Source: a virus | Lineage: Duplodnaviria > Caudoviricetes | Direction: 5' to 3' (one strand) | Virus record (IMG/VR): IMGVR_UViG_2906128962_000004 | Span: 1 to 64,000 of that record | Length of the DNA stretch: 64,000 bases | Part shown: one piece after another, positions 33,754 through 63,786 of the stretch | Layout of the letters: every line of letters starts with the position of its first letter | Position numbering within the stretch: position 1 is the first letter of the stretch | The notes under the pieces: generated by a model | What the model was told of the DNA's origin: nothing | What the model saw: only the letters and a program-made list of their open reading frames with translations | The model's database searches: none | Program-made: the position numbers and the translations under genes

Positions 33754-34077
33754 TTACGACCAAAATAAATCCGGCCCTTGAGACGCTGCGCTATCTTCTT
33801 CCAGAATGATTTCCTGCGCCTTAAGCATCCCTACTTCAGTCAACTGATAGGTATGAACTGGCGGTGTTTCGTTGAGTGTATGTACCGTTAACAGGCATTG
33901 TTGCTCCAGCCTGGCGAGTGACTGTCGTACATTCTGTGTCCTGGCTTTCCGACCTCCATAATGTTCATCTATATACGCAGTTATAGCGAGCAGGGTCACC
34001 GGGGTAAAAACATGCTGCTCGTTATATCTGCGTCCTATGCAAGATAACGCTAACTTTTGAATTGTTGAAAGCGCCAT
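33754..34077 (-). CDS. Winged-helix-like hypothetical protein
   Basis: VRQSLARLEQQCLL...YQLTEVG pattern. Confidence 0.55.
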   Translation of the reverse strand: MALSTIQKLALSCIGRRYNEQHVFTPVTLLAITAYIDEHYGGRKARTQNVRQSLARLEQQCLLTVHTLNETPPVHTYQLTEVGMLKAQEIILEEDSAASQGPDLFWS

Positions 34078-34097: not shown

Positions 34098-35141
34098 TTA
34101 CCGCTTCATGCGTTGGCTGTTTACAATATCGAGCATCACCGACTTATTGGCATCGATATAACGTATATAGCTCATGACCTGCTCAGGGCGTTTCCACGTG
34201 CCCTCATGCATGATCTGAGTGAGCTCTGTTCCTTTCAATGCCATATCCTGTGCAGCGCCCACACGGGGGCTATGCCCGGTCCAAGTTCTGTAGCGGGAGG
34301 ATTCAAGAGGCGCACCTTTAACGGCCTCCCAGGCTTTGGCAAATATTTTCTCTATATTTTTACCGGCCATGGGTTTTACTGCTGGGTGAGCATTGCCATA
34401 GCGATCGACCTTGCCAAAGATAAAGGTTGATTCATCCGTGAGGCCACTTGCGTTGAGCCAATTACGTAACCAACCGGCGACATCTGGCGCCAGCACTTTC
34501 ACCACGCCGAGCTCGTCTTTAATTGTTTTTGTATAACCCACATCAAGTGTGGCTGAACCATCTCGCTGAAACTGAATATCACCAATTCTTAACCGTGCAA
34601 CTTCTGACATGCGTAACAGGGTGTTGTAGGCCACCCCTAAAAACGCGAGGTCGCGTAGTTGCTGCATTTTGCCGCTGGCTTGGGTAATCTCCGCCAGTTG
34701 GAAAAGATCGTCGAGATGAAGGGGGATCGCCTGTTCAACTCGCTCGCCACTGAGGACCGCTTGCCGACTTATTTTTTTCATCCCGCGCGTCACCAGTATG
34801 TGCGATGCAGGTAGGGCCAGACCAGCCTCGCGATGGATCTTGTTAATCATTGATTTGTGCATCGCGATGGTGTTCTTTTTACGCCCAAGTGTCTCTCGCA
34901 GATAGATAAGGTACTCACGCACATCTGCAGGATCGGCCGGAAGCCACACTTTATTAAACTGCTTACACCATAACCCCCAGCTGCGGAGAACTGACTTCAT
35001 TTGCGCCCAGGTGTTTTCTGATGCTGCTTCCCGATCCACAAAGAACATGTGTAAATTTTCGGCAACCCGTTCATCGTATTTATCCGCAGTAATCAGCAGC
35101 GGGGATTCGGTCTGGTTAACCGGCAAATTAGTCATTGGCAT
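34098..35141 (-). CDS. cre: Cre-family tyrosine site-specific recombinase
   Basis: YNTLLRMSE (R), YTKT (K), GHSPRVGAAQDMA (H,R), GTWK (W), VMSYIR (Y); N-terminus aligns with Cre from MPMTNL (~347 aa). Confidence 0.92.
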   Translation of the reverse strand: MPMTNLPVNQTESPLLITADKYDERVAENLHMFFVDREAASENTWAQMKSVLRSWGLWCKQFNKVWLPADPADVREYLIYLRETLGRKKNTIAMHKSMINKIHREAGLALPASHILVTRGMKKISRQAVLSGERVEQAIPLHLDDLFQLAEITQASGKMQQLRDLAFLGVAYNTLLRMSEVARLRIGDIQFQRDGSATLDVGYTKTIKDELGVVKVLAPDVAGWLRNWLNASGLTDESTFIFGKVDRYGNAHPAVKPMAGKNIEKIFAKAWEAVKGAPLESSRYRTWTGHSPRVGAAQDMALKGTELTQIMHEGTWKRPEQVMSYIRYIDANKSVMLDIVNSQRMKR

Positions 35142-35194
35142 ATCTCTCAGGTGCACGGGTACGAGTAGTGACTCATTACGGAAAACTACCATAA

Positions 35195-35210
35195 CATTAG
35201 TATAATCTGT
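35195..35210 (-). promoter_or_regulatory. Candidate C1-type operator upstream of cre
   Basis: Minus strand ACAGATTATACTAATG. Confidence 0.55.
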
Positions 35211-35395
35211 TAGGTTTTTTATGAAATTTACACGGTTTTTAGGAAAACCGCTGTATTTTTCATTTTGCAGCACAATGACCGGTCAGAAATCCCAGATTTC
35301 ACGTAGCGACGCCAATACCTGAGTTAAGTGTAAGGTTATTTGTGGTGTAAAAACCGGTTCAGATGTTTTGTTAACCATGCCATTTTACATAAAAA

Positions 35396-35429
35396 CAAAG
35401 GTAATATAATGGGTGTTATATTACTTTTG
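35396..35429. other. lox-like recombination site (13-8-13)
   Basis: CAAAGGTAATATA-ATGGGTGT-TATATTACTTTTG; arms 12/13 complementary, TATA flanks as in loxP, position between divergent cre and coi/c1. Confidence 0.85.
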
Positions 35430-35626
35430 TGACTTTTTAAGGGGGGATCGAATTACGAGAGTTCGTGCTATGAAAAGCCTGTGTATTGCGCACCTTCTAA
35501 GCGGCTGCTTAATAAACGTACAAATCATACTTAATTTCAATGATTGCCTTTCTCTTACTTTTACCCCGGGCATCAGGATGATATACAACCCCAATTCGAA
35601 AATTTGTATGATTTTAGGAAGGATAA

Positions 35627-35875
35627 ATGGCTAACAGTGATGAACTTTTACTCGTTAACACTGAGATAACGACTGCAATTCAGAAACTTCACCTTGATAT
35701 TACTTCACGTCGTGCAGTTTCAACCCTCACCAGCCATTTCTGCATTGTCAAAGGATTGCATTCCAAACCCGCCAGTGAACTAAAACGCCTTAAAAAAAGT
35801 ATCCAGTTTCAGATAAACACCCATATATCCCAAAAATTTGCCCCAGCTAACTCTGCTTATGGTCGATTTCTCTAA
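35627..35875 (+). CDS. Small protein at the P1 coi (C1 inactivator) position
   Basis: 82 aa, AGGA RBS, directly upstream of c1; identity by position only. Confidence 0.45.
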   Translation: MANSDELLLVNTEITTAIQKLHLDITSRRAVSTLTSHFCIVKGLHSKPASELKRLKKSIQFQINTHISQKFAPANSAYGRFL

Positions 35876-35942: not shown

Positions 35943-36803
35943 ATGTCAGATAGCCGTACGGGCGAAGCCGTCTATAAGGAATTTATAGAGTTCCGAGACG
36001 CGTTCCTGACAGATGCTATGGATGAAGCTTCTGCCTGGAGCACGAATAAATATGGTGAAAAGTTTAGGCCTGTGGTGCTTGTCAGCGCCCGCAGGCTTAA
36101 AAAATGGACTGAAGCTATCGAACAATGGAATAAGTTCGCACAAGAACTCAAGAAATATCCTCAGTTGGGCATCCCAGTTTCGCTATACGAACCAGCTCCG
36201 AAATTCATCTCCGGAGCTATACGCGTGCGTTGTTATGAGCTACCAGCTACTGAGGTAACGACCAAGGCGCGGGAGAAGATCCTTGCAGATTACGACCGTG
36301 AAATTGAGCGGTTTAAGGCTATAGATAATACTAATCCTTACCTTACCCAACTGCAGGATGAACGGAAAACATTCGAAGCCTTACCTCCAAAAACGAAACT
36401 GAGATTACGCCGCACCGGCTACACGGATCTGAATTGCGCATACAGCACAACTGAAGAAAGTCAGATAATGGTGCGCGTATCATCCTCTGGTGTGTTCTTT
36501 GATGAGCGTACTCTTGGACAGGGTTTCACCTTCGGACCTAAAACCAAAAACAGTAAAGCATCGATTTACTCAGAATTGAGCCCCATTCCGCAATCGCTCT
36601 ATCAAAGCATAGATATTTACGACATCGATACTGTTGAAAAGGCAAAAGCTGCACGCAAAAAGTATCGAGAAGAGAATGAACAAGAGATCAAGCGTGAGCA
36701 ATGGTCGCGCTATAACAAAACTCGTGCTGCCAAAAATGCAATCCAGGCTGATGCAGAACATGCGGCAAGCGAGAAAAACCCTTCAGGTAGCAGCCACGAT
36801 TGA
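35943..36803 (+). CDS. c1: C1-like primary repressor
   Basis: GEAVYKEFIEFRDAFL...RPVVLV...W...ELKKYPQLGIP matches recalled P1 C1 (GEQLYQEFVSFRDLFL...RPVVVL...ELEQYPDLNIP); 286 aa. Confidence 0.85.
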   Translation: MSDSRTGEAVYKEFIEFRDAFLTDAMDEASAWSTNKYGEKFRPVVLVSARRLKKWTEAIEQWNKFAQELKKYPQLGIPVSLYEPAPKFISGAIRVRCYELPATEVTTKAREKILADYDREIERFKAIDNTNPYLTQLQDERKTFEALPPKTKLRLRRTGYTDLNCAYSTTEESQIMVRVSSSGVFFDERTLGQGFTFGPKTKNSKASIYSELSPIPQSLYQSIDIYDIDTVEKAKAARKKYREENEQEIKREQWSRYNKTRAAKNAIQADAEHAASEKNPSGSSHD

Positions 36804-36836: not shown

Positions 36837-38345
36837 TTAGCTTGCCCTACGTCTACGCAACCATTCCTCGGCTTCAGAACGAGTCTCTTCTTCATCATGG
36901 AAGGTTTCTTCGTTTGCCGGGGTAAAGTCCACCAGCTGCGTGAAGCAATATACATCCCAGTGATCCGGCGATTTGATGTTGAGCTTCTCGCGCATCTGCT
37001 CTTTCGGCACCATATACCATTGACCGGCTTCATTTAGGCCGCATGGGATCTTACATGCTTGGTCGACAGCCTTCCCCCCTTTATCAAACTTGAGTCGTCC
37101 CTGCTGTACGGCCATTTTGGCCATGATGTTTGCATATGCACGCTGGTTGATGAATCGCTCTTTGTCCTTCTTGGTGTGCATCCGTTTACCCCAGCGGATT
37201 CGCTGGGCGATGATGCCGTGTTTTTCTTCCAGTACATCAGCAGTGGTCGCGCCAACGCCGTCGCCATCGATGGCGATCTGAATATTGGGGTATTTCTCCG
37301 GGTCACATTCACTGAAAATGAAGTCTGCAAAACGTGACGGTGTAACAGTGGCTTCCATCTCCTTAACCAGATGAGGGACTACGCGCCGGTGTTTGCCATA
37401 TCCGGATACCCTGAAGATGCCCATTACTGATTTATCGCGGCCATTACCTACGTCACAGCAACAGATCCAGCCCCAGCCCATTGCAAGGGGAACTTTACGC
37501 CGCTGCGCACGTTCACACTCATCACGGCCAAGCAGATAGCCGGAAAGCGAGCTGGGGAATTCACCGCGTACCTTAATGAGGTATTCCGGTGACTCCCGGC
37601 CACCATAGTCCACCAGCTTTTCACGGATGAATTTCAGCGTTACGAGAGGCGATTCTTCAGAGTTAAGCTTAATCGCGTTGTATAGCCCATTCGGGTTGGC
37701 TTCTGTGCGCGCCAGGCGATGGTGAGAGTCGTAGAATTCACCAGCAGTACGCGTCGGCTGCGAGATGAGCATCAGCCGGTTGTCGTCCTGCGTCAGCGCA
37801 CCTTTGATAATACCGAATGCCTTATCCGATACGCCTGACGCTTCATCGATGATGTAAAGCAGGTGCTCTGCGTGCTCACCGGCGAGTGCTTCTTCGTTCC
37901 CCAGTCGGAAGCCTTTAGCGATAACTTCCCAGCTACCCTTCGACGCGTTCTCGTAAAAAGTAACATCGGCCAGGGTGAAGTATTGACCTAACCATGGGAA
38001 CCGCTTCAGGCATTCTTTCCAGTTCTGCCGGATGTACTTAAAGATACCGGTTTTAACCTGCTGCAGTTTGTTGGCCACGATGATGATACGAGACTCTGGG
38101 AAGAACATCAGGTAGCACAAGATCATGATAGCGGTCATGTCGGACTTACCCGTACCATGCCCGGAGGAAACCGTCGTCCAGCTGCCGGTCTGCTGAACTG
38201 ATTCGATAATTTCCTCCTGCTGCCAGGTGGGGATCTTATTAAACAAGACTTCAGCAGCGGTTACCCAGTCATAACGATACAGTTTAACCAGCTCCTGCCA
38301 GCGCGGGTCTTCAGTGATTGAGCGCCTAGTTATGGCTGCCATCAT
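36837..38345 (-). CDS. pacB: Terminase large subunit PacB
   Basis: SGHGTGKS Walker A, YIIDEASG Walker B, CDVG/DGDG/SPDHWD nuclease motifs. Confidence 0.95.
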
Positions 38346-39546
38346 CGCCCCCGTACAGCAGGTTATTTACCTCATCATCTGGTATTTCGTCGTCGGCAAA
38401 TTGTGCAGTTAGGTTGATATCGTTAAGAGAACCGTCAGCAGCGACATCACCAAACCCGCCACCATCCACCAGGAGATTTACAGCCTCGCGTTTCTCCGCC
38501 ATAAGTTGTTCGTGCTGAGCATGGCGAATTGCGCGCGCCTCCCTGGCTTGGCGGTCCAGTTCTTCCGGGTCATAAGCCACAGCTTTAACCTTGTCGGACT
38601 CACCATCTTTCACCTCTTTACGTGCCATCTCCATGAGTAGCGCCGGAACCTTATAGCCATGGGTCTCGATGTAGATCGCGGTATCAACAGCACTCCAGCC
38701 GTTTTCCTTTCGCTGCTGGTACGCTTGCATGATTCGTTCAGGCTCTTCTGTTTTGCGGTCGTGCAGCTCTTGCTCGCGCTTGTTCTTCGCATAGCTCTGA
38801 CGAATGCCCGCTAACGATCGTGCGGTGTCATTGATGGCACCCGCCGCGGCCGCGGCAACAGAGAGAGCTTTCGTTATTGGGTTCGGTCCGGATTCATCAT
38901 CATCACCTGATGCCGGTGGTTGTTCGGTAAGGAAGGTAAGGACCGCTTTCACAGTGCGGTTAAGGCAGAACAGGTTAACGAGGGATGATTCGATGGCCAT
39001 AGCCTCAATATCATCAACACCGGCTGCTGCTATCAGCTTTCGGGCTTCCTCCATGTCTTCATCGCTGGGGATTATGGAAGCTTCCAGAATCTGGCTACCG
39101 GCCATGTATTGATCACGTGTACGTCCCGATTTCGTCTTGGTCGATACTGCATTGATCAATTTCCCGACCAGCACAGCCTCTTCCGTTTGCCCAGCTTCGA
39201 CGCGCGCGTGTCTTCCGGCCTCTTTAACTTTCAGGCTTAATTCATTGATTTCCTGAGATAAATTTTTATTCTGCTTCGAGGGTTTGTGATCGCTTTTGCG
39301 CTTACCTGACTTTTTTTGATCATTTGATCGTTTTCCTGCCTTTTTAACGATCTGATCAGCTGGTCGCTGGTCTTGAACCTTACCTAATTGAGTCGTGCCT
39401 TCCCCCAGGTAGCGACGTGCGGTATTAGGGTTTAAACCATAGGTAAGTGCATATTCCTTAATAGATATTTTCTCGCCAGCGGCGCGCATTTCCGCATAGC
39501 GATTTCTATGTTCTGACCAGTCCGTTTTTACTGCCACTGCGATCAC
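38326..39546 (-). CDS. pacA: Terminase small subunit PacA
   Basis: 406 aa, N-terminal HTH ([19 protein letters not shown]), upstream of pacB. Confidence 0.85.
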
Positions 39547-48477: not shown

Positions 48478-48497
48478 GGGAATACCTCGCGCAATAA

Positions 48498-48517
48498 TAC
48501 TGGTTATGCGTACAGTA
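48498..48517. promoter_or_regulatory. LexA (SOS) box
   Basis: TACTG-GTTATGCGTA-CAGTA fits CTG-N10-CAG, 20 bp upstream of the umuD'-like start. Confidence 0.8.
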
Positions 48518-48548
48518 TTATTGCGCAGGGGCATGGTGTCAATTCCGG

Positions 48549-63678: not shown

Positions 63679-63697
63679 AAACTGCTTTAATTTGAAA

Positions 63698-63727
63698 ATA
63701 ATCCCCATAGTTAGATATGGGGATTAT
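63698..63727. terminator. Hairpin between convergent genes
   Basis: ATAATCCCCATA-N6-TATGGGGATTAT. Confidence 0.7.
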
Positions 63728-63786
63728 TCATATCGTCAACACTCAATGACTCATTTTTAGCCACTTTATGTTGCATAACCGCAGTC

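Follow-up and report, generated by a model that had tools for sequence, protein, structure and literature searches.

A tyrosine recombinase gene with a short inverted repeat ahead of it, both lying in a 64,000-nucleotide stretch of a Caudoviricetes virus record (IMG/VR IMGVR_UViG_2906128962_000004, positions 1 to 64,000; this whole stretch is referred to below as the window), raises the question of whether the virus encodes a Cre-family enzyme together with a lox-type target of its own, and whether such a pair would be new and orthogonal to those already described. The different lines of in silico evidence agree and support a Cre orthologue with a predicted cognate lox-type site in the position that these elements hold in P1. 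We consider it very likely that the recombinase and the site constitute the Cre/lox module of a P1-like phage-plasmid, whose closest sequenced relatives are circular plasmids (97-99 kb) of Citrobacter freundii.

The recombinase gene occupies positions 34098 to 35135 on the minus strand. Its mechanically defined open reading frame is longer (34098-35273, with a GTG start at 35273), and we placed the start at the ATG at 35135, which is the start that RefSeq assigns to the C. freundii orthologue and which also fits the N-terminus of Cre. The resulting protein has 345 aa; a preliminary description had rightly called it a tyrosine recombinase, and its length, given there as ~347 aa, is corrected here. 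A phmmer search of PDB aligned residues 11-337 of the protein with residues 11-338 of Cre chains (E 1e-72), and the Pfam Phage_integrase profile was matched at 4e-17. The two-domain protein is collinear with Cre over its full length and carries no arm-binding extension. Its identity is 38.4% to P1 Cre, 37.7% to Dre of phage D6, and 45-47% to homologues encoded on Pantoea plasmids. The alignment with Cre also substantiated the complete R-K-H-R-W-Y catalytic set that had been claimed for the enzyme, in that all six residues were found (i.e., R175, K203, H288, R291, W314, and the nucleophile Y323, the counterparts of Cre R173, K201, H289, R292, W315, and Y324, respectively). At the 24 positions that we take to be the DNA-contacting positions of Cre, the aligned residues are identical in 4 cases. 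One example of a difference is R259 of Cre, which is K in the present enzyme; the G at position 9 of the loxP half-site is A here.

Upstream of the gene lies a 34-bp lox-type site at positions 35396 to 35429, for which no strand is assigned. Because the start of the recombinase is the ATG at 35135, the distance between gene and site amounts to 260 bp; the upstream location proposed previously stands. The anatomy of the site was confirmed by direct reading, namely, 13-bp inverted arms (35396-35408 and 35417-35429) with one mismatch between them (G versus A, at the fifth arm position) and prolonged by an A/T pair at 35395/35430, and an asymmetric 8-bp spacer (35409-35416) that reads ATGGGTGT on the plus strand. 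The consensus half-site is CAAAGGTAATATA. Repeats of the 13-8-13 type with at most one mismatch occurred three times in the window versus zero times in each of 30 locally shuffled windows, and the repeat at 35396-35429 is the only one of the three that carries the family signature (both arms have A at position 3 and ATA at 11-13). The site occurs a single time in the 89.9-kb virus record, in which neither a second copy nor an array of half-sites was found. Searches for its exact core retrieved it in IMG/VR only within the window's own lineage, and it was not found in metagenome contigs. That the site is a chance repeat is ruled out by the zero count of such repeats in the 30 shuffles and by its conservation in relatives. 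The other two 13-8-13 repeats of the window (48491-48524 and 63696-63729), each with one mismatch and without the lox signature, may serve as operators or terminators.

Among sequenced elements, the closest to that of the window are two C. freundii plasmids (97 and 99 kb), both circular and non-mobilizable, that carry tail, terminase, ParM, and toxin-antitoxin genes. Their DNA is 90% identical to that of the window over the locus, and their recombinase is 97% identical; a megablast search of the locus against phage records returned no match. The 34-mer is unchanged in four elements whose recombinases are 91-100% identical. With 6 adjacent bases included, it makes up ~40 invariant columns, the longest such block between cre and c1 in these four elements. 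In relatives from public assemblies at 84% and 74% recombinase identity, the site is found at an equal distance from the gene. Both of its arms read CAAAGGTAATATA in the 74-84% relatives (L031 2217-2250, L032 2217-2250, and L033 652-685), i.e., they are perfectly symmetric, and the arm mismatch in the window is thus a lineage-specific change in one arm. The cre-sense spacer is ACACCCAT in the window versus ACCCCCAT in the 74-84% relatives, a difference of one base that falls inside the presumed crossover region. Across the wider family, a 13-8-13 repeat with the family signature was detected upstream of the gene in 23 loci with intact homologues, loxP and rox included, and each clade of this set has arm sequences of its own. 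Both positive controls of the repeat scan (loxP in a P1 genome and the annotated rox of D6) were recovered. A Photorhabdus locus (L024), in which the gene is broken or mis-framed and which has no site, was excluded from the comparisons, and in a further locus (L037) the upstream DNA is too short to hold a site.

We then compared the distance between half-sites with the identity of the corresponding proteins. Half-site distance was 0 at 91-100% protein identity, 0.5 at 74-84%, 2-3 in three lineages at 54-55%, and 4.5-8 in the remaining lineages. Over 19 lineages, the distances of site and enzyme were correlated (Mantel rho 0.35), with 11 of 5000 permutations reaching a value as high; this result was obtained after relatives at 54-84% identity had been added. 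When the Mantel test was restricted to the 14 distant lineages, no correlation was observed (rho 0.05; 1679 of 5000 permutations). It is thus the closer clade that supplies the co-divergence signal, and the lack of correlation among the distant lineages indicates that site divergence saturates early.

The nearest clade, at 52-58% identity, comprises Cre homologues of enterobacterial P1-like phage-plasmids, found on a plasmid of Pantoea sp. CCBC3-3-1, a contig of Enterobacter hormaechei, and contigs from Logan and IMG/VR. Its half-sites start with CAAAG or CCAAG and finish with ATA, and its spacers (ACATCCAT or ACATCCAA) are 1-2 changes away from that of the window. In contrast to the arrangement in the window, an HTH gene and a small open reading frame separate the site from the recombinase gene, at a distance of 0.9-1.9 kb, and the half-sites are 2-6.5 positions off. 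Two loci with recombinases 54-55% identical to that of the window (L036, site at 1466-1499; L034, site at 1584-1617) have half-sites one or two positions from the consensus and spacers that differ by one base from the window's. Half-site recognition seems to be much more conserved than the protein in the clade of L036 and L034.

The neighborhood of the pair has a P1-like layout, with a gene order (ref, cre, lox, a coi-like gene, c1, pacB, and pacA) that is shared with P1 and D6. An 82-aa open reading frame (35627-35875, plus strand) is located where P1 has coi, upstream of c1 and divergent from cre; it is without a family match, and the same gene is found in relatives. The adjacent gene (35943-36803, plus strand) encodes a 286-aa homologue of C1-type phage repressors, which is 25% identical to D6 C1 (E 1e-10) and matches phrog_1678 at 3e-39, and whose orthologues in relatives carry the domain PF27008 (Phage_P7_repressor_C1). 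Converging on c1 from the minus strand are the terminase genes pacB (36837-38345) and pacA (38326-39546), assigned by PHROG terminase matches of 1.6e-127 and 3e-60. On the other side of the locus, 20 bp downstream of the recombinase gene and co-oriented with it, is a gene for a 107-aa winged-helix protein (33754-34077, minus strand) with a weak, PadR-like Pfam match (PadR, 2e-4, under the curated cut-off), which the annotations of the C. freundii plasmids list as an HTH regulator; the gene for the Ref nuclease follows farther downstream on the same strand. The position expected of a P1-type module is thereby borne out, i.e., between cre and the c1 immunity operon and near pacAB, in an element whose close relatives are circular plasmids. 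As a separate observation, the PadR-like gene is kept beside the recombinase gene in relatives at 74-97% identity, and it occupies the position of c8 in P1.

Two further features of this region concern DNA other than the site itself. Inside pacA, five GATC sites within ~70 bp (~39285-39360, minus strand) form the densest such cluster in the window and are reminiscent of the Dam-methylated hexamer repeats at the pac site of P1. The cluster, 3.9 kb away from the lox-type site, is a candidate pac site. On its c1 side, the lox-type site is abutted by a patch of ~90 bp (35431-35520, no strand assigned) that is unalignable across three sub-lineages (the window, the two C. freundii plasmids, and UViG 2887663082), with flanks on both sides that are 90-100% identical. 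This patch may represent unconstrained DNA or a repeatedly replaced segment beside the crossover site.

The pair can be compared with established systems. In a P1-type genome (L028), loxP lies 419 bp upstream of cre and is followed by coi and c1, and in D6 the annotated rox lies 152 bp upstream of dre and adjoins c1 and pacB. The P1-type genome also verified what had been said of loxP at the outset, namely, that it sits between cre and coi/c1 and that the inner TATA and the spacer-initial ATG are common to loxP and the window's site. Similarities to Cre/loxP include the collinear protein, the identical catalytic set, the 34-bp site of 13-8-13 build with TATA beside the spacer, the orientation of the spacer relative to the gene (the cre-sense spacers of both end in CAT), the location of the site upstream of cre before the c1 operon and ~4 kb from pacA, and the presence of ref downstream of cre. 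Differences comprise a protein identity of 38%, 6 of 13 half-site and 3 of 8 spacer positions, a shorter gap between site and gene (260 bp here versus 419 bp), and the lack of a cra-like open reading frame in that gap. Dre/rox and Panto/pox belong to the same family and have the same genomic position, with rox annotated between c1 and dre; the rox half-site is 5.5 of 13 positions apart from that of the window. To our knowledge, vox, nox, VloxP, and SloxP either lack the TATA inner motif or have other arms. Since pox and rox differ at one arm position (Karimova et al.), pox is as distant from the window's half-site as rox. The earlier statement that the arms are unlike those of loxP, rox, and pox can thus be put in numbers (6 mismatches to loxP and 5.5 to rox, with pox placed through the report of Karimova et al.). 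For none of Cre/loxP, Dre/rox, and Panto/pox did we find a near-identical enzyme combined with a near-identical half-site, and the pair is identical to none of them.

If the module works as its homologues do, its mechanism can be sketched as follows. By homology with Cre, one recombinase monomer would bind each 13-bp arm, two occupied sites would synapse to give a tetramer, and neither an accessory protein nor an energy cofactor would be required. By analogy only, Tyr323 would cleave at the edges of the 8-bp spacer, and strands would be exchanged via a Holliday junction across a 6-bp overlap; modeled on loxP, we infer this crossover region to be TGGGTG (35410-35415, plus strand). The asymmetry of the spacer would set the polarity, and so the direction, of the site. 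Binding, cleavage positions, and recombination activity of the pair are accordingly predicted by analogy. The same holds for its probable biological role in circularization and dimer resolution: as in P1, the module would resolve plasmid multimers to monomers before partition, and it would circularize the terminally redundant DNA of a first headful, packaged from a pac site in pacA ~4 kb away.

Whether the pair is new is a different matter. Jelicic et al. (2023; PMC10250229) predicted ~500 Cre-type recombinase/site pairs by mining, for which proteins were collected by tblastn with Cre (<90% identity, 300-400 aa) and sites were defined as 13-bp palindromes that span an 8-bp gap, have one mismatch, and lie ≤1 kb from the gene. 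Such predictions have been tested systematically once, when 8 of 17 pairs proved active in E. coli, and the active sites share a TATA-type motif beside the spacer and a T at position 7 (PMC10250229); the window's site has both of these features. The YR1-YR12 enzymes and the ~500 pairs are the same type of object as the pair described here, arrived at by the same search logic of a Cre homologue and a nearby 13-8-13 palindrome. Our pair is a further member of a well-known and heavily mined family, for which ~500 pairs have been predicted and >12 validated. Indeed, the pair in plasmid CP056338 satisfies every one of the 2023 mining criteria, which favors the view that the present pair, although real, may already be among those listed or tested. 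By description, lox4 is similar to loxP, lox8 and lox11 to rox, and lox1 and lox6 to the VCre site (PMC10250229). These descriptions set the window's site, which resembles neither loxP nor rox, apart from lox1, lox4, lox6, lox8, and lox11, and this argues against prior listing, as does a search of literature text for the site strings, which yielded only unrelated primers and similar sequences. A literature search on the YR enzymes and on lox2, lox9, and lox12 yielded nothing past the original paper.

Orthogonality is subject to a similar reservation. Because Dre, Panto, and YR4 recombine sites with 4-7 differences per half-site (PMC10250229), orthogonality cannot be concluded from sequence, and sequence distance alone is no predictor of it. 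The window's half-site could lie within reach of these three enzymes. It could also lie within reach of natural relatives, given that L036, at 54% recombinase identity, has a half-site one position off the window's consensus. Taking novelty and orthogonality together, we see a considerable chance, somewhat short of even, that the pair is real but either not new, having been listed or tested before, or not orthogonal, being cross-recombined by Dre, Panto, YR4, or natural relatives. A stronger proposal, which from the sequences we regard as possible but doubtful, is that the pair would be active and cross-recombined by no characterized recombinase, and that, in addition, the sub-lineages with spacers ACACCCAT and ACCCCCAT would not recombine with each other. 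If this were true, related phage-plasmids would have, in the difference between ACACCCAT and ACCCCCAT, a natural means of avoiding cointegration, and two ready-made incompatible spacers would be available for one enzyme.

A reading that departs further from the Cre/lox module takes the repeat to regulate the divergent cre and coi/c1 genes as an operator or promoter element, bound, for example, by C1 or by the PadR-like protein, with the recombinase acting elsewhere. In favor of this reading, the control region that holds the repeat is divergent, the plus strand of the repeat includes a TATAAT hexamer, and conservation alone would fit an operator as well. A consensus scan of the cre-c1 intergenic region for sigma-70-type promoters found none, versus 1.9 expected by chance, a result that carries no information. 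Against the operator reading stands the 13-8-13 build with ATA flanking the 8-bp spacer, which recurs at every intact homologue, including those with the experimentally established sites loxP and rox, and the repeat diverges along with the recombinase. Moreover, in the 52-58% clade the repeat keeps to the c1 side, with other genes separating it from the recombinase gene 0.9-1.9 kb away, which is not the behavior of a promoter element of that gene. The record also holds no second copy or half-site array. We judge an operator or promoter function in place of a recombination site to be highly improbable. Even less probable is that the enzyme is an integrase inserting the element at a chromosomal attB, with the repeat as attP core: membership in the Phage_integrase superfamily and the label "integrase" on the nearest PHROG families would fit, but the plasmids most closely related to the element are free circles of 97-99 kb that carry genes for partition and toxin-antitoxin systems, the protein aligns collinearly with Cre and lacks an arm-binding extension, and no attB-like copy was seen, as the exact core occurs only in this lineage in IMG/VR and in 0 metagenome contigs.

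The Cre/lox module of a P1-like phage-plasmid thus remains our preferred reading of the locus. If active, it would enlarge the Cre-type toolbox by one natural pair, with a half-site far from loxP and rox, and with a perfectly symmetric natural site variant and a natural spacer variant at hand. Biologically, the locus shows that a P1-like lineage with a Cre identity as low as 38% has kept the cre-lox-c1-pac module whole, and that enzyme and site drift jointly in small steps. Neither the addition to the toolbox nor the conservation of the module would surprise a specialist.

The comparison set also contains a close relative of Cre in Cronobacter phage JK004 (L004), a protein that shares 79% identity with P1 Cre but has only a "hypothetical protein" annotation. 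Apart from one arm's outermost base, its site (1451-1484) equals loxP; the gene is 1.5 kb downstream of it.
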